A DNA stretch of 64,000 bases from Mayamaea pseudoterrestris (GCA_027923505.1 BROI01000008.1:434001-498000), one strand, 5' to 3'. Positions 52,891 to 64,000 are shown, counted from the first letter of the stretch. Notes: generated by a model not told the origin, from the sequence alone. Translations and numbers: made by a program.

Positions 52891-52969
52891 TGCAGGGCTG
52901 CAGTACTATACCAACTAATGTATGTGGCCCAGACACACATTAGACAACTTTCAACAGTCCATCCTCAAA

Positions 52970-54084
52970 GCCATGTCCATTACCATAATACACCAGGATG
53001 GTGACAGAACAATTATTTAGGCTGCGCAACAAGATAGTATGCCTGGCAAATGTCTCAGTAGACTGCAATGTGACTGGTGACAACTTCTCACCAGTCTACG
53101 CCAGCAGTTGCCTTGATATTCAATGACAATACATCAGGCCAGGTGTACACCAAATCATACAAGCATGGTGCCAACATAAATATCAGGCTGTGCTACAAGA
53201 TGGTATGCCTGGTGGGTGCCCTAGTAGACTGCAATGTGACTGGTGAGAACTTCTCACCAGTCTGAGCCTGCAGGTGATGCCCTGACATTCCATGGCCAAC
53301 ATAACATGCCATGTATACACCCAAATCACACCAGAATGGTGCCAACATCATTATGCAGTCTGCGCTACAAGATGGTATGCCTGGTTGGTGTCTCAGTAGA
53401 CTGCAATGTGACTGGTGAGAACTTGTCACCAGTCTCAGCCCGCAGATGCCTTGGCATTCAATTGTCCATATAACATGCCAAGTTTACATCCAAATCACAC
53501 CAGAATGGTGCCAACATCATTATTCAGTCTGCGCTACAAGATGGTATGCCTGGTGGGTGCCCTAGTAGACTGCAATGTGACTGGTGAGAACTTCTCACCA
53601 GTCTCAGCCCACAGGTGCCTTGACACTCTATTGCCCATATAACATGCCATGCATACACCCAAATCACACCAGAATGGTGCCAACATCATTATGCAGTCTG
53701 AGCTACAAGATGGTGTGCCTGGCTGGTGTCTCAGTCAACTGCAATGTGATTAATGAGAACTTCTCACCAGTCTCAACCCACAGATGCCTTGACATTCAAT
53801 TGCCCATATAGCATGCCACGTATACATTCAAATCACACCAAAATAGTGCCAAAACATCATTATTCCGTCTGCGCTACAAGATGGTATGCCTGGTTGGTGT
53901 CTCCGTAGACTGCAATGTGACTTGTGACAAGTTGTCACCAGTCTCGGCCCACAGATGCCCTGACATTCAATTGCCCCTATAACATGCCATGTATACACCT
54001 GAATCACACCAGAATGGTGCCAAAATAATTATTCAGTCTGCGCTACAAGATGGTTTGCCTGGCTGGTGCCCCAGTAGACTGCAA
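52970..54084. repeat. Tandem array of ~6.5 copies of a ~169-bp unit with an internal 25-bp palindrome
   Basis: The anchor position recurs at 53077, 53243, 53415, 53584, 53753 and 53924 (spacings 166, 172, 169, 169, 171). The core is GACTGGTGAGAA-C-TTCTCACCAGTC. Confidence 0.95.
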
Positions 54085-54532
54085 GATAGCATCTAGTTTA
54101 GCTACTTATTCGTTTTGCTATTAATACCGTAGACTGTTCGGTCTGACTCTCGTCAGATCGGTCCCTTCCCCTTGTGGCAAAGTGAAAATTCCGGCGCGCA
54201 AAACACGTTTTCGGTACAAGGCCTACACAAATTTCTACGCGGACTATGTGTCTCGGGACTCGAAAACGGTCAACGGATTACATCGGCATTGGACGAAGTA
54301 CGACGCGCCGGTACTCCCGCAAGGAACGACACGGCAGGTGCTACACACTAGCTGGGCATTATTGCATACTAGCTAACAAGCAGTCTTATAAGCATATAAA
54401 ACACCATGTTAGGCAGCTCAAGTGGTGTGCCATTTAATCGCGCCTACCTCCAAATGCATGAAGTATGGTTCAACTCCTCATCACCAGCTTGGCATCCTCT
54501 GAGGCTCACAGTCTGTCTTTAGCAATGATCAA

Positions 54533-54629
54533 GCAGCTTGCCGTCAAGTGTGCTGTCATGTGATCCAAGCGGCAAGCCCAGTGACTCGCCTAGCGCAGGA
54601 CCCATTCTCCTTCCCATTTCAGCACAAAG
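54533..54629 (+). repeat. Left part of the PSxx repeat unit interrupted by the retrotransposon
   Basis: agcagcttgccgtcaagtgtg...gcaggaccc matches the 144-bp unit and continues in register at 62930. Confidence 0.85.
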
Positions 54630-55016
54630 AGTTAAGGTATCTTCGGATCGGGTTCATATCTCTCCGGTACTCCGGGTCCGTTTCGACACCCATCATGTGT
54701 GGTCGGAATGTTCTTCATGTTGCTTGCTTCACCATGGCAACGCCTTGCTAGTAAAGGCATGCCCCAACCTCTCGCAAGCATGGTTACACTGTCAAACGGT
54801 CTATTATTACATAGGGAATCAGTTGAGGCGATCCGTTTGGCATGCATAACTGTAGTTTTCGCCCAACGCCTCGGGCGATGGTTTTGCAACTTGTTCGCTC
54901 AAATCTCGCTCACAATCTGATAGTCTGGTTGGTCCATAACACTATAAAGCAACAGTTGCATTACAAAGCATCTCCTTTCATCGTACTCAAGTAGATTGCA
55001 TCAAGCATTCTTCACT
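54630..55016 (+). repeat. 5' LTR (387 bp; AGTT...CACT)
   Basis: Identical by eye to 62538..62924. A TATA-like ctataaag lies near 54942. Confidence 0.95.
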
Positions 55017-55029: not shown

Positions 55030-55147
55030 AGTTAAAGCCTTACACGCCAACGTTTCCTTCAAGCAAACGATTCCTTTTACGTCGGGACGCCGCCGTTTAA
55101 ACAAGCCAACAAGCCTTTGATATCAAGCTCCATACCCTGCAAGAAGC

Positions 55148-58100
55148 ATGTCGACACCTACTACTGCTCCCCAAGACACTGAACCGGCCGAGGATCCGTT
55201 TCAGCCCGTCCTCCCCAAGAAAAAGCGCAACCCTGCTCCAAAGGATGGAGAGGGTCCAGTCCCTGCTCCAAAGGATGGAGAGGAACCCCCGACGCCGTCT
55301 CCAAAGGTTGGAGGCAAGCCATGGCCTACACCTCCCCACGCTCCCGCTCCCGCTCCCGCTCCAGCTCAGGCGCCCGTCCCGCCGCCTGCTCCTGCTCCTC
55401 CGGCTCCTCCAGCCCCTCCGGCGCCTCCAGCTCCTCCAGCTCCTCCAGCTCCACCGGCGCCTCCTGCCCCGCCTGCTCCTCCTGCCCCGCCGGCAGACGA
55501 GCCGCCTGAAGATCCAGGCGCCTTGGCGGCAGCCGTGGATGCGGATCGCCCTCCTAAACCGGTGCACGGTGCACTTTGCAAATTGGAAAAGAAGTACATT
55601 CCCTACACTGGCGGTGAGCCGGCCCGTGACTTTGCCGAGTTCCCTCAGCCAGCCTACACCATCCGTCCGTCTCCATTGGCTCGCCTCCGGTTTGATGATG
55701 CCAAGCTCACCGGTTGGAATGCCCGTACCAAAGGACTGTCGCAAAAGCTGTCCTTAAAGGGCGACCTGCTCGCTTGGGAAATGCAGGTTGAGGAGCATCT
55801 CGTCACCCATGGAATGGACACCATTGTGCACCTCGATCACCCTTTGGATGACAAGCAAACCGTCTCCATTATCAAGCACAGTGGGCTTTTCTTGACCACC
55901 GACGAGGTCATCCGTCATCTCGAGGGACCCAAGAAGACCTGGGACCCTTATGATGAGGCAAATGATGATGAGGCCACCACATTCCTTCGCAATTCCATTG
56001 ATTCCGAGTTGCTCAAGCGCCTCATGTACCAAACGCCCGGCGGCAAGAAGGAGCCCTTTGTCATCACCTTTTCCCGTGTCATGTCAATGATGCGCCAGCA
56101 CAACCGCGAGGTTCACCACCGCATCGAACGGGAGGCAGTGGCCATCCGTCCCCAAGCTTTTGCAGGCCAAAACATCACTGCTTATGCGACCGCTGTACTG
56201 GACAAGCTCAAGCCTCTCTTCAATGCCTGCACCTACAATCATGATACCACTGAGGAGCTCATCATGGCCCTAAACACCGCAGGAGGCGAGTGTTTGAAGG
56301 AAAACCCTGGTGAGCTGGCCTTCCGTGAGGCGCTTTATCCCTTCAAAAAGCGTTACTATAAGGCCCGCCTGGAGCTCCGCCCCATGCGTGAAAGTGAACG
56401 GCATTTCTACATGGCGGAGCAGCGGTGCCTGCCCGAAGACCTCTTTGCTGATGCCATTGCCTCCTATGACGTCCTCTGTTCCAAGCAATTGTGGCAGCCT
56501 GCCCGCAACCGCACGGATTCGCGGGTTCCCCAAGCCAATCTCCTCGAGCTCAATACCAAGTCCCAGAGCTCCTCCCGCTCCACCCTTGCCCAGCGCGGCT
56601 GTTTTGTATGCGGTTCCATGGCTCACCAAATTACCGACTGCCCCAAAAAGGACGAGCATTTCAACCCGAAGAAGGATGGTGGTTCCAACGGTGGTGGCTC
56701 CGGTGGATCCAGCAAGCCCTCCCATTCCGGTTCTGGTCGAGGCAACCAAGGCAAAGGCAACTCCTCCCGTCAGAACAATAATGGCAAGGGCAACAAAGGC
56801 AACAACAACCGCTCCTCCAACGGCAAAAAGGGCCGTTCCTCCTCCAACCAGGACTCCAAGCTCTGGTGTGGCTATTGCACTCGGTATGGCACCCACTGCA
56901 CCAAGGAGCACAAGGACACGCGCACCATGAAGAACCCACCCAAGGAGCCTCCTACTCATCAGGCAAACCTTGCAAATGTGCATGATCCCAATGAGTGGGT
57001 GGTCCCTTATGTTAACCTGGCGCAAGTTGAGTTCCAAAAGCGCTGGTCTGCCCCGTCTCCTGATCCTGCCACTGTCCCAGTTGCTGCCCCACTTGTGAAC
57101 CGTTGGGTGGCGCCTCCTCGCATCATTCCTGATGGCCCTCCTACAGTTCCTCCTCCTGTGGCTGCAGCTCCTACTGTCATTGATTTAACTGAGACGGTTG
57201 TGGATTTGACCCTTGACGGGGGATCTGACAGTGAATCCGGTCACAGTGCCTCCACCGTTCCCAGCACCAACAAGGCAAAGCGCCCTGCTCGGTCCCACAG
57301 CAGTCCCTCTCGGTTCCCCAAGTCTGCCAAGATTGCTGTTGGTACCTTGCTCCTTTTGAGCCTGTGTGCTCCCAAGGCTGATGCATTTGCCCCGTTTGTC
57401 GCCCTCCGCCCTGCTGTGACCCCAGCTCCAAGCCCTACACTCAGCCAAGTGTATGAGTGGTTTCCGCCCGTGTTCACCCCAGTTCCTGAGCCTGCCTTGC
57501 CTACCGCCACCATTCACCTTCAGGAGACTGCCTCTCGGTTTAAGGAAGCCATTGGTGTGCCTGTGCCTGCCGTCACCCTTCTGGCCTCCTCGCTCCTTGA
57601 GCTCGCCAGCTCCAGCCTCTCCCTTGTGCATGCCACCCTCTTCTTCTACTGGATGCACTGGGAGCTCATTGAACCTTTCCTTTTGTGGTTCTTTCTGGCT
57701 GGATTGGTTCTGCTTGCCTGCTGGTACCGCGCCGCCTACCGCCGCCTTCGTCGGGGCCCACTTGGATGCCAACCTGCTCCATACTTGCGGCGCCTCCTCC
57801 TGCCTTACCGTGCCTACCGCGCCTTGAGTCGCACTGCCTGGCGAGGTATTCAAAGGTCTGTCTGGTGGGAAGCCTTCCTTTTGATGGATCATTTTGACCG
57901 GCGCCTCACACGGTGGTTTGCTCGGCAGTTTGCCTACTGGCTCTCCTACTGGCCTGCCAACGGGGGAAGATGCCATGCGAGGCCTGCGACTGTCCCTTTA
58001 CACCTTCAACGGGCACTCCTGGATCCCAATGCAATGATTGGCCATGTGGATCCTCAATATCCTCGGTATGTACCTGCCTCTCCCCGCAACAAGCGCCGCC

Positions 58101-58372
58101 GCCGCCAGCGCCGCAACAAGCGCGACCGCTGTGTTGCTGTGGCTGTTCCAGTTGCTCCTCCTCCGCCGCCTCTTCCAGTCCCTCACGTCCCTAAATCCCG
58201 CCGTCGAGGCCGCCGAGGCCGAGGCCGTTCCCGTAAAGGCAAGTCCCTTGGAAGAGACCAGTCTCGCAGCCCCTCCCGTGATCCTAAACGGGGGAATACT
58301 TTGTCAACCCAGCACGAGACCAAGCCATCTGCCAAGTCCATCACCAGACGCCGTTCACGTCCCTCCCATTAG
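55148..58372 (+). CDS. gag: Retrotransposon ORF1: Gag with a long membrane-protein-like C-terminal extension
   Basis: 1074 aa. It has a (PPA)n N-terminus, a CCHC knuckle CFVCGSMAHQITDC (56600..56641) and a second CxxC-H-H motif (56867..56911). Hydrophobic segments lie at ~57330-57395 and 57550-57730, followed by an Arg-rich tail. Confidence 0.9.
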   Translation: MSTPTTAPQDTEPAEDPFQPVLPKKKRNPAPKDGEGPVPAPKDGEEPPTPSPKVGGKPWPTPPHAPAPAPAPAQAPVPPPAPAPPAPPAPPAPPAPPAPPAPPAPPAPPAPPAPPADEPPEDPGALAAAVDADRPPKPVHGALCKLEKKYIPYTGGEPARDFAEFPQPAYTIRPSPLARLRFDDAKLTGWNARTKGLSQKLSLKGDLLAWEMQVEEHLVTHGMDTIVHLDHPLDDKQTVSIIKHSGLFLTTDEVIRHLEGPKKTWDPYDEANDDEATTFLRNSIDSELLKRLMYQTPGGKKEPFVITFSRVMSMMRQHNREVHHRIEREAVAIRPQAFAGQNITAYATAVLDKLKPLFNACTYNHDTTEELIMALNTAGGECLKENPGELAFREALYPFKKRYYKARLELRPMRESERHFYMAEQRCLPEDLFADAIASYDVLCSKQLWQPARNRTDSRVPQANLLELNTKSQSSSRSTLAQRGCFVCGSMAHQITDCPKKDEHFNPKKDGGSNGGGSGGSSKPSHSGSGRGNQGKGNSSRQNNNGKGNKGNNNRSSNGKKGRSSSNQDSKLWCGYCTRYGTHCTKEHKDTRTMKNPPKEPPTHQANLANVHDPNEWVVPYVNLAQVEFQKRWSAPSPDPATVPVAAPLVNRWVAPPRIIPDGPPTVPPPVAAAPTVIDLTETVVDLTLDGGSDSESGHSASTVPSTNKAKRPARSHSSPSRFPKSAKIAVGTLLLLSLCAPKADAFAPFVALRPAVTPAPSPTLSQVYEWFPPVFTPVPEPALPTATIHLQETASRFKEAIGVPVPAVTLLASSLLELASSSLSLVHATLFFYWMHWELIEPFLLWFFLAGLVLLACWYRAAYRRLRRGPLGCQPAPYLRRLLLPYRAYRALSRTAWRGIQRSVWWEAFLLMDHFDRRLTRWFARQFAYWLSYWPANGGRCHARPATVPLHLQRALLDPNAMIGHVDPQYPRYVPASPRNKRRRRQRRNKRDRCVAVAVPVAPPPPPLPVPHVPKSRRRGRRGRGRSRKGKSLGRDQSRSPSRDPKRGNTLSTQHETKPSAKSITRRRSRPSH

Positions 58373-61300
58373 CTATCTTGCTTCTGCCTACGTCTTGAGC
58401 CTTTCCTCCTCTGAGCGAGAGGCATTGGCTCTTAGACTTCGCAGCCATCCCGACGCCAATCCTAACTTCATTGACTCTAAGCCCAAGGCTAAAGAAGAGC
58501 AGTTCAAAGTGATTTGGGATTCAGGCGCCAGCATCTCCCTTTCTCCATGCCGCTCTGACTTTGTTGGTCCAATTGAAACGCCTCCTGAGGGAGCATTTAT
58601 CAATGGATTGTTTCAACCTGGTCGCATTGCAGGCAGGGGATGTGTTGCCTGGACCTTCCTTGACAATGGAGGCATGCGGCGCACCCTCAAACTCCCTGCA
58701 TATTACGTTCCTACTGGAAAGGTTCGGTTGCTCAGTACCTCCAACTTGCTGCAGCAATACCCAGAGGAATTCATCTATGGAGATGAGCATGCTATCTATC
58801 TAAGTGGAACCAAGTCTACCACGCATGAGGATGGATCCATTACCAACAATGGGATTGAAGTCTTGGTGGATCCTGATTCAAACTTGCCCACTGCCTACGC
58901 CATTGACAATGATTCTGGCCCAAATGCCTTTTACATCGATCCTGGAACACCTGGCCCTCCACCTGGTCCAGCACCAAGTTCACCTTCTGACCAATCACAA
59001 GGCGAAGGAGGCTCAAGTGGTTCATCTCCTGGTTCTCCACAAGGCCCTCGAGACCCTGATCCGCCTTCTTCTTCCCCATCTGGCGCGCCAAGTGCTCCAG
59101 GCTCTCCATATTGCCTTGCAGTCACCCCAGCTCCTTCCGTCCTTTCAAACATCAACAAGAATCTCAGTGAGTCTGAAAAGGAGCTCCTTAGATGGCATTT
59201 CCGCCTTGGCCATCTCGCCTTCAACCGGATCCAGTTCCTGATGCGCAGTGGCACCCTCTCCCATTCAGAGGCCCAGCGCAGGCTCCATGCCCTTAGCTCC
59301 CGCATTATTCACCCTCCAATGTGTGCTGCCTGTCAATATGCCAAGCAAAAGGTTCGCGCAACCCCAGGCATTCAGTCTCAAGCAGTTAAAGACCGAGCGG
59401 GTGTCCTACGGCGCGACAATCTGTTTCCAGGGCAGCGCGTCAGTGTGGACCATTTCATTTGCTCTACAAAGGGCCGTGACCTGTTCAACTCTAGAGGCAA
59501 GAGTCAAGAAACTGAGCTCTTCAGTGGCGGTTGCATCTTTGTGGATCATGCTACTGGCTTTGTCCACATTGAGTTCCAGAAGCACCTCAATTCTGATGAA
59601 ACGCTTGCAGCCAAGGAGGCCTTTGAGCTCAAATGCCGTGACTTTGGAGTCCTTCCTCAAGAGTATCTTTCAGACAATGGAAGAGCCTTTACCTCCCAAG
59701 CATTTGCGCAGCATTTGTCCACCTTTGCTCAAGTTAGCAGGTTTGCTGGCACTGGAGCCCACCATCACAATGGCATTGCAGAGCGCAGTATCCAAACAAT
59801 CATGAGCATCTCGCGTGCTATGATGCTGCATGCCTCCATCCACTGGAGTGAAGTCTCTGATCCTAATCTGTGGCCCATGGCCTGCAGCTACGCCGTCTTC
59901 CTTTGGAACAAGATGCCAGACCTGCAAAGCGGTGTGAGTCCCCATGACCTCTTTACCAGGACTCGCTGGCCTCAAGCCAAGTTCCATGACCTCCATGTAT
60001 GGGGATGCCCAGTGTATGTCCTTGAAAAGCGCCTTTCTGATGGCCAGAAGCTTCCAAGGTGGTCACCTCGCTCCAAGCGCTGCATCTTCATGGGTATGAG
60101 CGACAGTCATGCCAGCTCTGTCCCTTTGGTCCTCAATCCTGCAACAGGAGCTATTACACCACAGTTCCATGTTGTTTTTGATGACTGGTTTGCTACAGTT
60201 ACCTCGGAACCGTCCAGTTTGCCTGACTTCAACACCCCGGCCTGGGACAAGATGTTTGGCGAAAGCGCCTACCAGTACATTCCCACCGACGAACCCGAGT
60301 CTCTGTCTGCAACACCGGATGATGCTACACCTCCCATTACTGAAGCTGCAAGTCAAAGGATCGACAGGGTACAGAATGCCTTCGAACGCAACAGTCCCCC
60401 TCGCGTCCTTCCCATTCCGCCTCCGCCTGAGCCAACCTGGGCACAGCTTCCGCCAGCACCGGCGCCAATGCCAGCTACGCCAGCGGTACCAAGAGCGCCC
60501 AGTCCTCCTCCTACAAGGGCGCCAAGTTCGCCTCCACCAAGGGCGCCTAGTCCTCCTCCTGCAAGGGCGCCTAGTCCGCCTCCAACAAGGGCGCCATCTC
60601 CCATTTTGCACGACCCAAGGGCGAACGAATCCGCACCTCCGTCGTCACCTGCACCTCCGCCGGCTCCAGCTACACAGCATGAACCAAGACGCTCTAGTCG
60701 CTCCAATTTTGGTGTTCAACCCAATCGACTTACCTACCCGCGCCTTGGCCTTCCAGCCATGTTCGCCTACACTGAAAAGGTGGCTGAGTATGCCCATTTT
60801 GCCTCCCTGTATTCCGCCTTCCGCATCCCAGCGCCAGCCATTTACAAAGCTGCTGCCTCTGATCCCGACACCCTTTCCTGGGATGAGGCAATGTGCGATG
60901 TATCTCACCGAGATCACTGGCTCAAGGCTGCAGAAGGAGAAATCACATCCCTACAGTCAAAAGGCACATGGATTGAAGTCCCCAAGTCTGAGGCCAAGAG
61001 CAGGATCATCCCCGGCACCTGGGTCTTTCGCCGCAAGCGTTCACCCGATGGCACAATCAAGAAGTACAAAGCTCGCTTCTGTGTCCGTGGTGACCTTGAG
61101 GAAGGCTCATTTGACACCTTTGCCCCGGTTGTGGCCTGGTCTACCATTCGCCTCCTCCTAGTGTTTGCCCTGACCCTTGACTGGCATGCCTGCACCGTCG
61201 ATTTTGCAAGTGCCTTTGTCCAAGATGAATTGGATAAGCCAGTCTGGATTCACATTCCTCGAGGTTTCAACTCAAGCAAAGGCCCCAACCACTGCCTGCG

Positions 61301-62441
61301 CCTCAAGAAGAGCCTCTACGGCTTGTCCGTTGCACCCCGACTCTGGTTTCAACACCTGTGCAGCGCCTTGAAAAGCCTTGGTCTCATACAAAGCTCCTTT
61401 GACCAATGCTTGTTCTTTGGCCTTGGTCTAGTGTGCGGGTGCTATGTGGACGATTTAGCTATCATTGGCAAGACTCCAAAGGTTGTCAACGACTTTGTTG
61501 CAAAGCACCGGTCCCTTGGTCTTGAACTCACTCAGGAAGACTCCCTTTGCGAGTACCTTGGCATCAAGCTTGTACGTGATGATGCTAAAGGGACCTACAC
61601 TCTCACCCAACAAGGATTGATTGACAAGATTATCACTGCCACTGGCCTTGCCGAGTCCAACCCCAACAGTGTCCCTGCTACCCAGCTTGCCCTTGGCACC
61701 GACCCCGATGGAGCCTACATGCAAGAAGGCTGGTCCTACCCTTCTGTTGTTGGCATGCTCCTCTATCTTGCCATCAATACCCGCCCAGACATTGCCTATG
61801 CCATCAGTCAAGTAGCACGTTTCAACCATGGTCCCAAGCAGACTCATGCGAGAGCTGTTAAAATGATTGTCCGTTACCTCAAGGGATCCCGCACCATTGG
61901 CACCGTCATGAAGCCAAATGGTTCCTTCAATCTTGATCTTTATACGGATGCCGACTATGCTGGTTTGTATAAACAGGAACCCGACCATTCTGCTACAGCA
62001 GTCCGCTCTCGTACAGGCTACATCATTCTTCTCGGTAGCTGCCCGCTTGTTTGGAAATCCCAGCTACAGACCGAGATTGCCCTTTCAACTCTGGAAGCCA
62101 AGTACTGTGCACTCTCCCTTGGTCTTAAAGCCCTTCTCCCTCTCAAGCGCATCCTTATGGAAGTCCTTCAGACCCTCCGCCTTCCCAGTCCTACAGCAAC
62201 TTGCGTGAGCGCTCGTGCCTACCAGGATAACCAAGGCGCCTTCTACCTTGCCGTCAATAAGCGCCTCACCAACCGCACCAAGCACATGTTGGTCAAGTTC
62301 CATTGGTTTTGGCGCCACCATGAGCAAGGCGAATTCTCTATCTGCATGGTTAAGTCGGCCGATCAACTGGCAGACTACCTCACCAAGGGTCTCTCCAAGG
62401 ATGTGTTCCTCAAGAACCGCAGAAGCGTCCAACACAATTAA
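58038..62441 (+). CDS. pol: Retrotransposon ORF2: Pol (protease, integrase, RT, RNase H), in the +1 frame relative to gag
   Basis: PR IWDSGAS; HHCC WHFRLGH..CAAC; IN VDH/SDNG/GIAER; RT KYKARFCVRGD, VDFASAF, SLYGL, YVDD; RH YTDADYA, YQDNQ, RTKH, QLADYLTK. Confidence 0.95.
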   Translation: MAMWILNILGMYLPLPATSAAAASAATSATAVLLWLFQLLLLRRLFQSLTSLNPAVEAAEAEAVPVKASPLEETSLAAPPVILNGGILCQPSTRPSHLPSPSPDAVHVPPISYLASAYVLSLSSSEREALALRLRSHPDANPNFIDSKPKAKEEQFKVIWDSGASISLSPCRSDFVGPIETPPEGAFINGLFQPGRIAGRGCVAWTFLDNGGMRRTLKLPAYYVPTGKVRLLSTSNLLQQYPEEFIYGDEHAIYLSGTKSTTHEDGSITNNGIEVLVDPDSNLPTAYAIDNDSGPNAFYIDPGTPGPPPGPAPSSPSDQSQGEGGSSGSSPGSPQGPRDPDPPSSSPSGAPSAPGSPYCLAVTPAPSVLSNINKNLSESEKELLRWHFRLGHLAFNRIQFLMRSGTLSHSEAQRRLHALSSRIIHPPMCAACQYAKQKVRATPGIQSQAVKDRAGVLRRDNLFPGQRVSVDHFICSTKGRDLFNSRGKSQETELFSGGCIFVDHATGFVHIEFQKHLNSDETLAAKEAFELKCRDFGVLPQEYLSDNGRAFTSQAFAQHLSTFAQVSRFAGTGAHHHNGIAERSIQTIMSISRAMMLHASIHWSEVSDPNLWPMACSYAVFLWNKMPDLQSGVSPHDLFTRTRWPQAKFHDLHVWGCPVYVLEKRLSDGQKLPRWSPRSKRCIFMGMSDSHASSVPLVLNPATGAITPQFHVVFDDWFATVTSEPSSLPDFNTPAWDKMFGESAYQYIPTDEPESLSATPDDATPPITEAASQRIDRVQNAFERNSPPRVLPIPPPPEPTWAQLPPAPAPMPATPAVPRAPSPPPTRAPSSPPPRAPSPPPARAPSPPPTRAPSPILHDPRANESAPPSSPAPPPAPATQHEPRRSSRSNFGVQPNRLTYPRLGLPAMFAYTEKVAEYAHFASLYSAFRIPAPAIYKAAASDPDTLSWDEAMCDVSHRDHWLKAAEGEITSLQSKGTWIEVPKSEAKSRIIPGTWVFRRKRSPDGTIKKYKARFCVRGDLEEGSFDTFAPVVAWSTIRLLLVFALTLDWHACTVDFASAFVQDELDKPVWIHIPRGFNSSKGPNHCLRLKKSLYGLSVAPRLWFQHLCSALKSLGLIQSSFDQCLFFGLGLVCGCYVDDLAIIGKTPKVVNDFVAKHRSLGLELTQEDSLCEYLGIKLVRDDAKGTYTLTQQGLIDKIITATGLAESNPNSVPATQLALGTDPDGAYMQEGWSYPSVVGMLLYLAINTRPDIAYAISQVARFNHGPKQTHARAVKMIVRYLKGSRTIGTVMKPNGSFNLDLYTDADYAGLYKQEPDHSATAVRSRTGYIILLGSCPLVWKSQLQTEIALSTLEAKYCALSLGLKALLPLKRILMEVLQTLRLPSPTATCVSARAYQDNQGAFYLAVNKRLTNRTKHMLVKFHWFWRHHEQGEFSICMVKSADQLADYLTKGLSKDVFLKNRRSVQHN

Positions 62442-62524: not shown

Positions 62525-62537
62525 AAGCGCAAGGGCG
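62525..62537 (+). promoter_or_regulatory. Polypurine tract
   Basis: The purine-rich aagcgcaagggcg lies immediately 5' of the 3' LTR. Confidence 0.65.
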
Positions 62538-62924
62538 AGTTAAGGTATCTTCGGATCGGGTTCATATCTCTCCGGTACTCCGGGTCCGTTTCGACACCCA
62601 TCATGTGTGGTCGGAATGTTCTTCATGTTGCTTGCTTCACCATGGCAACGCCTTGCTAGTAAAGGCATGCCCCAACCTCTCGCAAGCATGGTTACACTGT
62701 CAAACGGTCTATTATTACATAGGGAATCAGTTGAGGCGATCCGTTTGGCATGCATAACTGTAGTTTTCGCCCAACGCCTCGGGCGATGGTTTTGCAACTT
62801 GTTCGCTCAAATCTCGCTCACAATCTGATAGTCTGGTTGGTCCATAACACTATAAAGCAACAGTTGCATTACAAAGCATCTCCTTTCATCGTACTCAAGT
62901 AGATTGCATCAAGCATTCTTCACT
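62538..62924 (+). repeat. 3' LTR (387 bp)
   Basis: Direct repeat of 54630..55016, followed by the TSD CAAAG. Confidence 0.95.
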
Positions 62925-62929
62925 CAAAG

Positions 62930-63953
62930 CTTGTCACATTCTGTAGCTTCCAGTTGGTCTCCCAGCACTTACTCCAGCAGCCTACCATCAAAGCGCCAAG
63001 CCCAGAGTGTCACCTAGCGCAGGACCCAGTCTCCATCATAGTGCAGCACCAATATTTTCCTCTTCTGCAGCTTCCAACACCCGCCCCAGCAGCTTGTTAA
63101 CAAATGTGCCTTTCAGTGACCCAAGCGCCAAGCGCAGTGATCCCTGCACCGTACCAAGCAGCTTGCCATCAAGTGTGCCATCAAGTAATCTATGCGTTAA
63201 GCCCAGTGTCTTACCTAGCGCAGGACCCAGTATCCTTCCCAGTGCAGCTCCAAGCTTGTCACCATCTGTGGCTCCCAGTTGCTCTCCCAGCAGCCATCCC
63301 AGCAGCTTGCCATCAAGTGTGCCATCATGTGGTCCAAGCGGCAAGCCCAGTAACTCACCTAGCGCAGGACCCAGTCTCCTTCCCAGTGCAGCTGCAAGCT
63401 TGTCACCCTCTGTAGCTCCCAGTTGGTCTCCCAGCACCCAATCCAGCAGCTTGCCATCAAGTGTGCCAACATGTGATCCAAGCGGCAAGCCCAGTGACTC
63501 ACCTAGAGCAGGACCCAGTCTCCTTCCCAGTGCAGCATCAAGCTTGTCACCCTCTAGTAGCTCCCAGTTTGTCTATCAGCACTCAACCCGGCAGCTTGCC
63601 ATCAAGTGTGCCATCAAGTGATCCAAATGCCAAGCTAGGCTCTCCGTTTGTCTCTAGGCACTAAACCCAGCAGCTTGCCATCAAGTGTGCCAACATGTGA
63701 TCCAAGCGGCAAGCCTAGTGACTCACCTAGAGCAGGACCCAGTCTCCTTCCCAGTGCAGATGCAAGCTTGGTCACCCTCTGTAGCTCCTAGCTGGTCTCC
63801 CAGCACCCAACCCAGCAGCTTGCCATCAAGTGTGTTGTCATGTGATGCAAGCGGCAAGCCCAGTGACTCACCTAGCGCAGGACTCAGTCTCCTTCCCAGT
63901 GCAGCTTCGAGTTTGTCACCCTCTGTGGCTCTCAGTTTGTCTCCAAGCACTTA
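62930..63953 (+). pseudogene. Decayed Pro/Ser-rich (PSxx)n coding repeat with a 144-bp higher-order unit
   Basis: The agcagcttgcc anchor recurs at 63157, 63301, 63445 and ~63590. Translation gives PSSLPSSVPS..PSGKPSDSPSAGPSLLPSAAPSLSPSVAPS, with frameshifts and many Cys/Trp codons consistent with CpG decay. Confidence 0.8.
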
Positions 63954-64000
63954 AAAGTATGTTGTCTTTAGAAGCAAGCAGTAAGTATTTGTAATCAATA

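Follow-up and report, generated by a model that had tools for sequence, protein, structure and literature searches.

The element and its reading frames

The window analyzed here is a 64,000-nucleotide stretch of Mayamaea pseudoterrestris DNA (GCA_027923505.1, BROI01000008.1:434001-498000), and all features described below lie on its plus strand. A pair of long terminal repeats (LTRs) was found as a BLAST block of 388 nt with 100% identity (54629-55016 and 62537-62924). The 5' LTR was assigned from this block to 54630..55016 and the 3' LTR to 62538..62924. The target-site duplication CAAAG was read from the sequence at 54625..54629 on the left and at 62925-62929 on the right. Two overlapping open reading frames were found between the LTRs. 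ORF1 (55148..58372; 1074 aa, translated from 55148-58369) encodes a Pro-rich N-terminus, a gag core, two zinc knuckles, and a 486-aa extension. ORF2 (58038..62441) is the pol frame and encodes protease, GAG-pre-integrase, integrase, and RVT_2. The protease motif DSGAS is located in ORF2 at 58518-58532 and is followed by Pfam domains in the order PF13976, rve, SH3_retrovirus, and RVT_2, which is the order of copia elements. The features by which Ty1/copia elements are recognized were all found: direct LTRs with a short target-site duplication, a CCHC knuckle in Gag, and the copia order of pol domains. The element is best explained as a Ty1/copia LTR retrotransposon, intact and very young, that belongs to a diatom-specific lineage. 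The best 120 of 1326 pol matches share 44-61% identity with it, and the few source-named ones are diatoms; by pol similarity, it is a candidate member of the CoDi-like lineage. Source-named pol matches among these best 120 include Mayamaea, Fragilaria, and Cylindrotheca.

The gag core of ORF1 matches relatives, with a best E-value of 6e-47 (protein P0003; search of 120 proteins). The CCHC zinc knuckle, CFVCGSMAHQITDC, is located at aa 485-498 (56600..56641). A second knuckle-like motif, CGYCTRYGTHCTKEH, at aa 574-588 (56867..56911), is homologous to the family motif WCxKCxRWTTTHxTxxH. It is followed at 56963..56998 by ANLANVHDPNEW (consensus ANxxLVxDPSAW), the last part of ORF1 that can be aligned by sequence to relatives. 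An extension past the knuckles had been claimed by an earlier reading of the sequence alone, herein referred to as the sequence-only reading. The extension is present. Counted from aa 588, where the second knuckle ends, up to the stop codon, it measures 486 aa instead of the claimed 450 aa or so.

The ORF1 frame is stop-free from 55118 to 58370 (3252 nt), whereas the other two forward frames contain 9 and 22 stops in 57000-58300 and are both closed through 57000-58035. A is depleted at third codon positions, with fractions of 0.06-0.15 in the extension, 0.10 in gag, and 0.14-0.15 in pol. A sister copy of approximately 99% identity was found in the public runs X1 and X2, belonging to two studies, and its comparison with the window lists 40 of the 324 substitution differences and 12 of the 68 indels. 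Among the listed coding substitutions, 29 of 33 are synonymous. Those in the extension comprise 9 synonymous and 2 conservative changes (L845I and F849L, both in the hydrophobic helix described below), an excess of synonymous changes that refers to the subset of 40 out of 324 differences. Upstream of the frame junction, every listed indel of the extension has a length divisible by three (+15 at 57240, -3 at 58145, and +6 at 58211), and an indel of +9 is located in the knuckle linker at 56739. These observations support the view that the extension is a translated coding sequence, apparently under purifying selection. A non-functional spacer, an intron, or an accidentally open frame could account for a region that is skewed in composition to Pro, Ala, and Arg and has no homologue detectable by sequence, but such an origin is highly improbable in view of the single open frame, a codon bias like that in the rest of the element, the in-frame indels, and the 9 synonymous vs. 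2 conservative changes among those listed. Additionally, any route from gag to pol must read the ORF1 frame at least to 58038, and no contig joint skips the region.

Pol lies in the +1 frame relative to ORF1 (p%3=2 for ORF1 and p%3=0 for pol), with an overlap at 58038-58372. Inside this overlap, the T-run at 58300..58302 has one T more than the sister copy, as seen in all covering contigs in X1 and X2. Since the sister copy lacks one T at 58300, its gag, linker, and pol are in one frame. In the relatives, gag and pol are joined in one ORF of about 2000-2400 aa. The ORF1 stop is therefore best explained as a probable one-base peculiarity of this copy, due to either a mutation or a homopolymer sequencing error, and the earlier claim that ORF1 continues instead of entering protease would describe this copy only. 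A programmed +1 frameshift of the Ty1 type was considered but is not supported: none of the Ty1-type slippery heptamers looked for was found in the ORF1/ORF2 overlap, the sister copy is in frame, and the relatives are single ORFs. For CoDi-like diatom copia elements, passages of one published description report gag and pol in one ORF or split by one stop or frameshift (Maumus et al., 2009, PMC2806351).

The extension and its counterparts in diatom relatives

The extension contains several hydrophobic segments followed by a basic region. The first is a signal-peptide-like segment, KSAKIAVGTLLLLSLCAPKADA, at aa 725-746 (57320-57385), followed by FAP, so that the whole spans aa 725-749 (57320..57394), with the hexapeptide ADAFAP at 57377-57394. 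A middle hydrophobic stretch, AIGVPVPAVTLLASSLLELASSSLSLVHATLFFYW, is located at aa 801-835 (57548..57652) and reaches a Kyte-Doolittle mean over 19 residues (KD) of up to 1.69. The third is a membrane-type helix with an entry motif, HWELIEPFLLWFF...LACWY, at aa 837-860 (57656..57727), in which the helix proper, PFLLWFFLAGLVLLACWY, occupies aa 843-860 (57674-57727). Among the listed differences from the sister copy, 57656..57727 has four synonymous changes besides L845I and F849L. The helix has the highest KD in ORF1 (2.28) and a crude insertion energy of 0.2-0.3 kcal/mol on a Hessa-type scale. It has the sequence features of a membrane helix, namely a run of 18 or more residues that are strongly hydrophobic and carry no charge, with aromatic residues at the ends and a positive flank. 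This flank, RAAYRRLRR (57728-57754), directly follows the helix and opens a basic and aromatic region (57728..58299) with W/Y/R-rich helices, RNKRRRRQRRNKRDR, and KSRRRGRRGRGRSRKGK; Arg-rich runs were found at 58085-58129 and 58193-58243. The signal-like segment, ADAFAP, the helix, RAAYRRLRR, and the Arg-rich tail had all been named by the sequence-only reading, and each was located on the translation where it had been placed.

Relatives were defined as those 75 of the best 120 proteins (of 1326 pol matches) that have both a CCHC knuckle and a protease motif. Their linkers between knuckle and protease are 255-698 aa long. A 19-residue window with KD of at least 1.6 was found in 72 of the 75 linkers, and KD of at least 2.0 in 56; no linker segment reaches 1.6 in the other 3. 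The corresponding numbers are 1 and 0 of 75 for gag, and 59 and 8 of 75 for pol, which is three times longer. A crude insertion energy below 1 kcal/mol, on a Hessa-type scale, was obtained for 52 of 75 linkers, no gag, and 3 pol parts. A hydrophobic segment was also found in 15 of the 18 knuckle-less matches with at least 190 aa upstream of protease. The segments in relatives consist of 19-25 uncharged residues, are bordered by Trp, Tyr, or Phe, and lead directly into a polybasic run; the last hydrophobic helix lies about 190-350 aa upstream of protease. Only one hydrophobic cluster was found in 28 of the 72 relatives at the threshold used, and some of these single clusters extend over 40-60 aa. 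The 30 residues that follow the last hydrophobic segment have a mean net charge of +4.75, which is positive in 62 and at least +4 in 45 of the 72 relatives. The N-terminal flank of the module has a mean net charge of -1 and is positive in 18 of 72. The last helix of the family opens with an AP..W motif, whose Trp is at least 90% conserved in an alignment of 70 sequences. In an alignment of 32 sequences, this Trp is invariant, and the Pro and two Arg of RxxRR are at least 90% conserved.

The element in the window has the same arrangement: a 486-aa extension (against a threshold of more than 250 aa for linkers) with a KD of 2.28, the polybasic run RAAYRRLRR, and a helix that precedes the protease Asp by 281 aa, a distance within the range seen in the family. 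Its entry motif is EPFLLW, one residue longer than AP..W. A profile of the relatives' linkers matches ORF1 colinearly, with 22.8 bits for the knuckles and ANL motif (aa 485-622), a weak 1.6 bits for the helix (aa 808-857, with P843 and W848 on the family Pro and Trp), and protease in ORF2. The family motif HRxYPxxLR, located between helix and protease, had no match in ORF1 or ORF2 with this profile. With a 75-residue motif profile, the extension scores -3.9 bits, a value equalled or exceeded by 555 of 1000 shuffles; the AP..W expression also matches 36 of 109 pol parts. By itself, the match in sequence between the helix of the window and the family motif is without statistical significance. 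The linker is best explained as evolving too fast in sequence for homology searches while its design is fixed. As judged from these protein sequences, the data support a membrane-type hydrophobic module between the zinc knuckles and protease as a lineage-wide feature of related diatom copia polyproteins (72/75). The sequence-only reading had suspected that a membrane-type module in this position was undescribed; no description was found in the literature searched, which agrees with this suspicion, and the module proved to be family-wide.

As an alternative source of the extension, the captured 5' end of a host gene for a plastid-targeted protein had been proposed. ASAFAP is a diatom plastid-targeting motif, and ADAFAP agrees with it at 5/6 positions, a likeness that is the one point in favor of capture. 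Against it, a search of 1.84 billion representative proteins with a 474-aa extension query gave no match at E-values up to 0.001. No homologue of the extension was found in 5.8 billion proteins by a word-indexed search or in scans of metagenome and viral contigs, and the ESM Atlas gave no usable match. Moreover, a module of the same design occupies the same place in relatives at only 44-59% pol identity, which argues that it is old and belongs to the element. Host capture is thus extremely improbable.

The signal-peptide-like segment

In the sequence-only reading, aa 725-746 would be an internal, cleavable signal peptide. Signal peptidase would cut at ADA|FAP and free Gag, aa 747-842 would be lumenal in the ER or chloroplast-ER, and the helix at aa 843-860 would anchor the downstream product, as in the capsid-signal-envelope polyproteins of RNA viruses. 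The local pattern was confirmed: a crude rule, which asks for a basic n-region, then 11 or more uncharged residues as the core, and finally a small residue at both -3 and -1, matches ORF1 only once, exactly at KSAKIAVGTLLLLSLCAPKADA, and finds a match in 64 of 2000 shuffles of the extension. The segment has a hydrophobic core of only 12-13 residues, with Ala at -3 and -1, and the locus fits our own crude rule, including Phe at +1. Additionally, 57377-57394 is unchanged among the listed differences from the sister copy, with two spans Gag and Pol would not be separated by the membrane, and the basic flank after the helix would suit a cytosolic C-terminal side.

The distribution of the pattern in relatives points against cleavage. 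Across related diatom copia elements, it is the hydrophobic module that is conserved, not the site: A.AF.P was found in none of the 75 linkers of relatives. The looser form [AGS].[AGS]F[AS]P was found in 3 of 75, and two of these represent the FAP..W start of the main helix with no preceding signal core. The signal-peptide-like pattern occurs in 10 of 75 linkers vs. 24 of 75 pol parts and is, per residue, no commoner than in pol. The segment itself is not N-terminal, starting at aa 725 of 1074 with 724 residues ahead of it, and Met is absent from ORF1 between aa 594 and 836. The middle stretch at aa 801-835 could be the partner span instead. The cleavage model is accordingly very unlikely, and the link to plastid targeting through ASAFAP finds no support. 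ADA|FAP most likely resembles a cleavage site by chance, as part of this element's first hydrophobic helix, and KSAKIAVGTLLLLSLCAPKADA may simply be the first hydrophobic helix of the module.

The proposed likeness to envelope proteins also failed. N-x-S/T sites of ORF1 were found only at aa 342, 454, 538, and 554. Since the would-be lumenal loop is at most 97 aa long and no such site follows aa 554, the module is not env-like. An Env-like glycoprotein was rejected on the size of this loop, its lack of a glycosylation site, and the location of the module in frame between gag and pol. Internal hydrophobic signals or anchors directly after a basic, nucleic-acid-binding capsid part are found in the polyproteins of flaviviruses, alphaviruses, and rubella virus, which have large glycosylated ectodomains and depend on signal peptidase. 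The diatom element differs from them in its short loop without N-x-S/T, in the unconserved cleavage motif, and in the enzymes, instead of an envelope, that follow the module.

Proposed membrane anchoring and known systems

The region is probably a conserved membrane-anchoring helical module inside Gag-Pol. We infer its insertion from Kyte-Doolittle averages and a crude sum on a Hessa-type scale, and its topology, the identity of the membrane, and a role in assembly are likewise proposed conditionally. The linker, read as part of the Gag(-Pol) polyprotein, contributes one to three hydrophobic helices, the last of membrane grade. This last helix opens with the near-invariant Pro...Trp (AP..W in the family, with EPFLLW as its candidate counterpart here) and is followed directly by the polybasic stretch. 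The module would insert into an endomembrane, for which the ER is the simplest choice, and would form a helical hairpin or another anchor with an even number of spans; its basic side, Gag, and Pol would all remain cytosolic. The polyprotein and the RNA under translation would thereby be tethered and concentrated at the membrane for particle assembly, and the element's own protease would then free the parts. The positive-inside rule fails to confirm a hairpin with both ends cytosolic, because the N-terminal flank is not basic in relatives.

The helices could instead lie outside the membrane, as a soluble or self-associating bundle in Gag-Pol, for example a dimerization or assembly domain that controls protease activation, with the basic stretch binding RNA. 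AlphaFold2 predicted, for the linker of a relative with a 32-row alignment, four long helices with pLDDT of about 76-87, including the AP..W helix at residues 204-225, and a second-knuckle domain with pLDDT of 94-96. Consecutive long helices, partly amphipathic, around a hydrophobic one would suit a bundle, as would the N-terminal flank that is not basic and a post-helix region whose abundance of Arg, Trp, and Tyr recalls nucleic-acid-binding tails. Additionally, KD of 1.6-2.1 is possible in soluble folds, since one conserved buried stretch of pol reaches it. However, the predicted model is not compact (pTM 0.24) and gave no fold match, and KD of at least 2.0 and energies below 1 kcal/mol are concentrated in linkers (56 and 52 of 75) as compared with gag (0 and 0) and pol (8 and 3). 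Uncharged stretches of 19-25 residues that have aromatic ends and pass straight into a polybasic run are, moreover, the usual signature of membrane helices. The single-sequence model of the window's own protein was uninformative (mean pLDDT 45). A soluble bundle is thus unlikely, and the membrane-anchoring module is retained as the preferred reading.

Several known systems resemble such an anchor in part. Env-like genes of Sireviruses and plant LTR elements are extra ORFs after pol. Published passages on these elements mention an 'envelope-like gene' and 'additional ORFs' (PMC3599292; PMC7264820), and these genes share with the present element extra membrane-related coding capacity in LTR retrotransposons, copia-type ones included. 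Here, in contrast, the module sits between nucleocapsid and protease in the same frame and lacks a sizeable ectodomain. To our knowledge, Ty1 has no membrane-type helix between nucleocapsid and protease. Ty1, also a Ty1/copia element, is reported to have its assembly site nucleated at the ER by co-translational targeting of the nascent polyprotein: SRP takes part in the translation of its RNA, and its Gag travels by way of the ER (Doh, Lutz and Curcio, 2014, PMC3945221). The diatom element differs in having a hydrophobic module hard-wired in its polyprotein, and it may itself involve the ER.

The sORF2/FAST-like proteins of MDG1-group Ty3/gypsy elements are described, in sections of their report, as separate ORFs of 63-107 aa that precede gag or follow pol and mostly carry an N-myristoylation motif, in gypsy-type elements of insects (PMC11952523). 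As far as these sections go, they are similar to the present module in a retrotransposon-encoded hydrophobic helix, a juxtamembrane polybasic region, an aromatic residue just past the helix, and a divergence that defies homology detection. Here, however, the helix forms part of Gag-Pol, in a copia-type element of a unicellular alga. Membership in this group was rejected: the element has a helix and a polybasic region, but they are not encoded by an ORF of their own, and no start codon lies nearby.

The closest known elements are the CoDi-like copia elements (PMC2806351; Llorens et al., 2009, PMC2774666). In the portions of these reports considered here, they share with the present element the PR, IN, RT, RH order and near-identical LTRs, and the nearest pol relatives of the present element, among the best 120, include source-named diatom proteins. 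The word 'transmembrane' occurs 0 times in the main text of PMC2806351 or PMC2774666, and the same portions make no mention of a long hydrophobic linker.

A further-reaching possibility, which we regard as quite unlikely, is that a diatom copia lineage has built a true membrane-integral segment into Gag-Pol. Processing by protease could then leave a small membrane protein with a helix and a polybasic tail, FAST-like/sORF2-like or viroporin-like. Particles might then assemble at one particular endomembrane (ER, chloroplast-ER, or lipid droplets), perhaps with envelopment or cell-to-cell transfer, for example at mating. If true, this would be a route to retrovirus-like behavior without env genes, in a unicellular alga.

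Structure of the element and features of the ORF1 extension

The ORF1 extension under study is enclosed in an 8.3-kb Ty1/copia LTR retrotransposon. The LTRs of this element share a 388-nt block with 100% identity (54629-55016 and 62537-62924) and are flanked on both sides by a 5-bp target duplication, CAAAG. ORF1 (55148-58372) encodes 1074 aa, including a Pro-rich N-terminus, a gag core, a CCHC knuckle at aa 485-498, and, at aa 574-588, a second motif resembling a knuckle. The frame of ORF2, open at 58038-62441, encodes protease (DSGAS at 58518-58532), GAG-pre-integrase, integrase, and RVT_2 domains. The G+C content is 52-58% in the element and about 48% in the gene-dense window as a whole.

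The insertion site lies in tandem-repeat DNA (52940-54628 and 62925-64000); the repeat unit measures about 169 nt at 52940-54084, and units of about 144 nt lie to the left and right of the element. In plus-strand frames, these repeats read as Ser/Pro-rich repeats (…PSSLPSSVPSCGPSGKPS…) and resemble a repeat-protein gene interrupted by the element. In one contig of the public sequencing run X1, position 54613 is continued directly by 62996; this joint could reflect either an empty site or an artefact of the repeats. Within the element, a PAPPAPP… repeat was found in the gag N-terminus (55325-55495, ORF1 aa ~60-116), and Pro accounts for 40% of aa 1-130. Contigs of the runs end inside this repeat, at 55329-55411, and a sister copy of the element (about 99% identical; runs X1 and X2) has deletions of 9 and 3 nt there (55444, 55454). 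Another Pro-rich repeat (…PPPTRAPSSPPPRAPSPPPARAPSPPPTRAPSP…) occupies the integrase-to-RT interval of pol (60300-60720) and includes two nearly repeated 35-nt stretches, at 60490-60524 and at 60562-60596; a variable Pro-rich spacer is also present between integrase and RT in related elements. The minus strand at 57185-57976 contains a 263-aa ORF antisense to the extension, which most likely results from a composition rich in G+C and poor in stops.

The extension follows the second knuckle and comprises 486 aa up to the ORF1 stop. For this region, the sequence-only reading had named an internal signal peptide with an ADA/FAP site, a transmembrane helix, and an Arg-rich tail, and each of these features lies at the position given there. 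The signal-peptide-like segment KSAKIAVGTLLLLSLCAPKADA is followed by FAP (ADAFAP at 57377-57394). The membrane-type helix PFLLWFFLAGLVLLACWY (57674-57727) is followed by RAAYRRLRR and then by two Arg-rich runs. The highest hydrophobicity of any 19-mer in ORF1 (Kyte-Doolittle [KD] 2.28) is reached in this helix, against 1.54 in the core of the signal-peptide-like segment and 1.69 in a middle stretch at aa 801-827. An AlphaFold2 model of aa 705-1050, built without an alignment, was uninformative (mean pLDDT 45).

Coding status, selection, and the gag-pol frame

The ORF1 frame runs for 3252 nt without a stop. The other two forward frames contain many stops between 57000 and 58035; therefore, a ribosome passing from gag to pol must read the ORF1 frame to at least 58038. 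Depletion of A at the third codon position of the extension (0.06-0.15) is equal to that of gag and pol.

Near-identical DNA was found in four public runs (X1-X4) from two studies, compared as contigs. A 2995-nt X1 contig, together with matching X2 contigs, spans 56487-59452 with 33 substitutions relative to the window. The following tallies rest on 40 of the 324 substitution differences and 12 of the 68 indels. Among the listed coding substitutions of the sister copy, 29 of 33 are synonymous. Those listed for the extension include nine synonymous and two conservative (L845I, F849L) changes, and six of these 11 are clustered within 36 nt of the helix. The listed indels of the extension upstream of the frame junction (+15, -3, and +6), as well as that of the knuckle linker (+9), are all multiples of three.

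The pol frame is +1 relative to ORF1. At 58300, all covering X1 and X2 contigs have TT versus TTT in the window, and with one T fewer the ORF1 frame runs directly into the pol frame. The X1 contig is also 29 nt longer than the window sequence (2995 versus 2966 nt at 56487-59452), that is, -1 modulo 3, so gag and pol fall in one frame. None of the slippery heptamers compared is present in the ORF1/ORF2 overlap, and the related elements are single ORFs of about 2000-2400 aa. Thus, the last 24 ORF1 residues with the stop are best explained as a one-base mutation or homopolymer error peculiar to this copy rather than as a programmed arrangement. Just 5' of the protease, at 58427-58456, a 30-nt interval of the sister copy shows changes of +3, -1, and -1 nt and forms a small hypervariable patch of the pol frame, in which further indels beyond those listed must restore the frame.

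A membrane-type module between gag and protease

Homology searches with the extension itself were negative. No matches to its 474-aa sequence were found among 1.84 billion representative proteins (HMMER), and the ESM Atlas provided no usable match. A word-indexed collection of 5.8 billion proteins, covered for subject lengths of 590-1880, yielded nothing for ORF1 residues 601-1074 or 125-600; the gag relatives, which exceed these lengths, were later reached through pol. Scans of metagenome contigs with ORF1 and with pol, and of viral contigs with ORF1, provided no confirmed relative, and sequences of the PDB matched ORF1 no better than expected by chance (E ≥ 0.076).

In total, 1326 matches were found by the pol search, and the best 120 (44-61% identity) were examined. 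Some of these 120 are named by their sources as Mayamaea, Fragilaria, and Cylindrotheca, all diatoms. Their gag cores match that of the window with E-values of up to 6e-47 in the 120-protein search. When the extension was compared with the same proteins, phmmer with default settings found nothing, and phmmer --max and blastp found only low-complexity matches to Pro-rich pol (best E 0.001). After exclusion of 11 proteins without a protease motif (regex) and 34 without an upstream CCHC knuckle, 75 relatives were kept, with knuckle-to-protease linkers of 255-698 aa.

A hydrophobic 19-mer was found in the linkers of 72 of the 75 relatives at KD ≥ 1.6 and of 56 at KD ≥ 2.0. By the same test, the gag parts have such a segment in one and none of the 75, respectively. 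The pol parts, three times longer, have it in 59 and eight, mostly at one conserved site of the RT region. A crude sum on a Hessa-type scale (<1 kcal/mol) selected 52 of 75 linkers, no gag part, and three pol parts. Among the 34 knuckle-less matches, 15 of the 18 that extend 190 aa or more beyond the protease on its N-terminal side also have a hydrophobic segment. The number of hydrophobic clusters (KD 1.6) is two in 38 relatives, one in 28, and three in six; some of the single clusters are 40-60 aa wide. The last cluster typically starts with (W)xLLAPLLWI, and the 30 aa after it carry a positive net charge in 62 of 72 relatives (mean +4.75). The Trp of the Pro…Trp motif opening the last helix (AP..W) is at least 90% conserved in a 70-sequence whole-protein alignment. 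This Trp is invariant in a 32-sequence alignment, where conservation also reaches at least 90% for the Pro, for two Arg of RxxRR, and for YPxxLR further downstream. The membrane-type module between gag and protease is real, selected, and lineage-wide.

Between the helix and the protease, the A3 consensus of many relatives reads GSIRxHGxHRxYPxxLRxxGHF…APT, with …REG… and …LRMALQAP.RFR… later. A second, strongly conserved module follows the CCHC knuckle (56867-56998 in the window; P0002-P0120 in the relatives) and reads SW(R/K)xxPP…TFxWCxKCxRWTTTHxTxxH…ANxxLVxDPSAW. It was modeled by AlphaFold2 as a small beta domain (pLDDT 94-96), the sole Foldseek neighbours of which are plant SBP zinc-finger chains, at very weak scores. 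No Pfam family matches this second-knuckle module in ORF1.

The distance from the window helix to the downstream protease Asp is 281 aa, and that from the family segments is about 190-350 aa; by position, the two correspond. A profile built from the linkers of the relatives aligns with the window in the same order at the knuckles and ANL..DP..W (aa 485-622, 22.8 bits), at the helix (aa 808-857; weak, 1.6 bits), where P843 and W848 fall on the AP..W columns, and at the protease in ORF2. A profile of 62 AP..W windows scored the extension no better than shuffles, and HRxYPxxLR was not found in the window with the linker profile; sequence statistics alone do not show the correspondence. One alignment (A1), combining a window fragment with 64 whole relatives, smeared the fragment over the whole polyprotein and was rejected for folding. 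The AlphaFold2 model of the P0043 relative's linker (32-row alignment; mean pLDDT 65, pTM 0.24) contains a small confident domain around the second knuckle (pLDDT 94-96) and four long helices at residues 117-225 (pLDDT ~76-87), the last being the AP..W helix, with a basic helix after it. Foldseek found no PDB match to this model with E ≤ 0.001.

The membrane reading of the extension is supported for the module between gag and protease; its signal-peptidase, plastid, and envelope parts are not supported. The local signal-peptide-like pattern is genuine, and with 64 of 2000 shuffles of the extension reaching it, its occurrence by chance is moderately unlikely. That aa 725-746 form a cleaved signal peptide is improbable. 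The ADA/FAP site is absent from the linkers of the relatives (A.AF.P in 0 of 75). A looser motif pattern was found in three of 75, two of which (...FAPILW and ...FAPMIW) are starts of the main helix. A crude signal-peptide-like rule selected 10 of 75 linkers, with a per-residue frequency no higher than in pol. Moreover, the segment lies 724 residues from the protein start without a nearby Met, and the putative lumenal loop, of at most 97 aa, has no N-x-S/T site. Residues 725-746 are therefore read either as the form that the first hydrophobic helix takes in this element or as a product of chance. Capture of a host gene, suggested earlier as the 5' end of a plastid protein, is very unlikely, since none of the searches found a homologue and the position of the module is conserved.

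Possible role and significance

The module may anchor Gag-Pol to an endomembrane; its basic side would face the cytosol, and with it the enzymes. Gag would lie on that side too only if the chain crossed the membrane an even number of times or formed a re-entrant hairpin. The frequent two-cluster pattern of the relatives fits such a topology; it is not confirmed by the N-flank, whose charge averages -1 and is positive in 18 of 72. Tethering could concentrate the polyprotein and RNA for particle assembly. Membrane insertion, its topology, the target membrane, and any function are inferred.

Copia-type elements form cytoplasmic, envelope-less particles, and membrane segments are not known from their polyproteins. 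The literature searched, which covered few subscription journals, does not describe such a segment. The word "transmembrane" occurs in the main text of neither of the founding CoDi papers (PMC2806351, PMC2774666); long gag-protease spacers may already be listed in Additional file 1 of the former, which gives ORF1/ORF2 lengths of CoDi elements, and in the additional files of the latter. The nearest functional analogies are the FAST-like sORF2 proteins of insect gypsy-type elements, as outlined in PMC11952523, and the env-like ORFs of plant elements; unlike the module, both are separate ORFs. The anchoring idea is conceptually close to assembly of yeast Ty1, which is described as starting at the ER (PMC3945221).

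The module is invisible to homology search and was seen only through its physical properties at a fixed position, which calls for caution in annotation. A membrane-grade helix is selected for at one place of the polyprotein in at least 72 of the 75 diatom relatives. Such a helix would be a new component in the biology of LTR retrotransposons and would tie in with the ER start of Ty1 assembly. Copia-type elements of this kind are described as the most abundant transposons of diatom genomes (PMC2806351), and the module offers a simple and testable way into the site and mode of their assembly.
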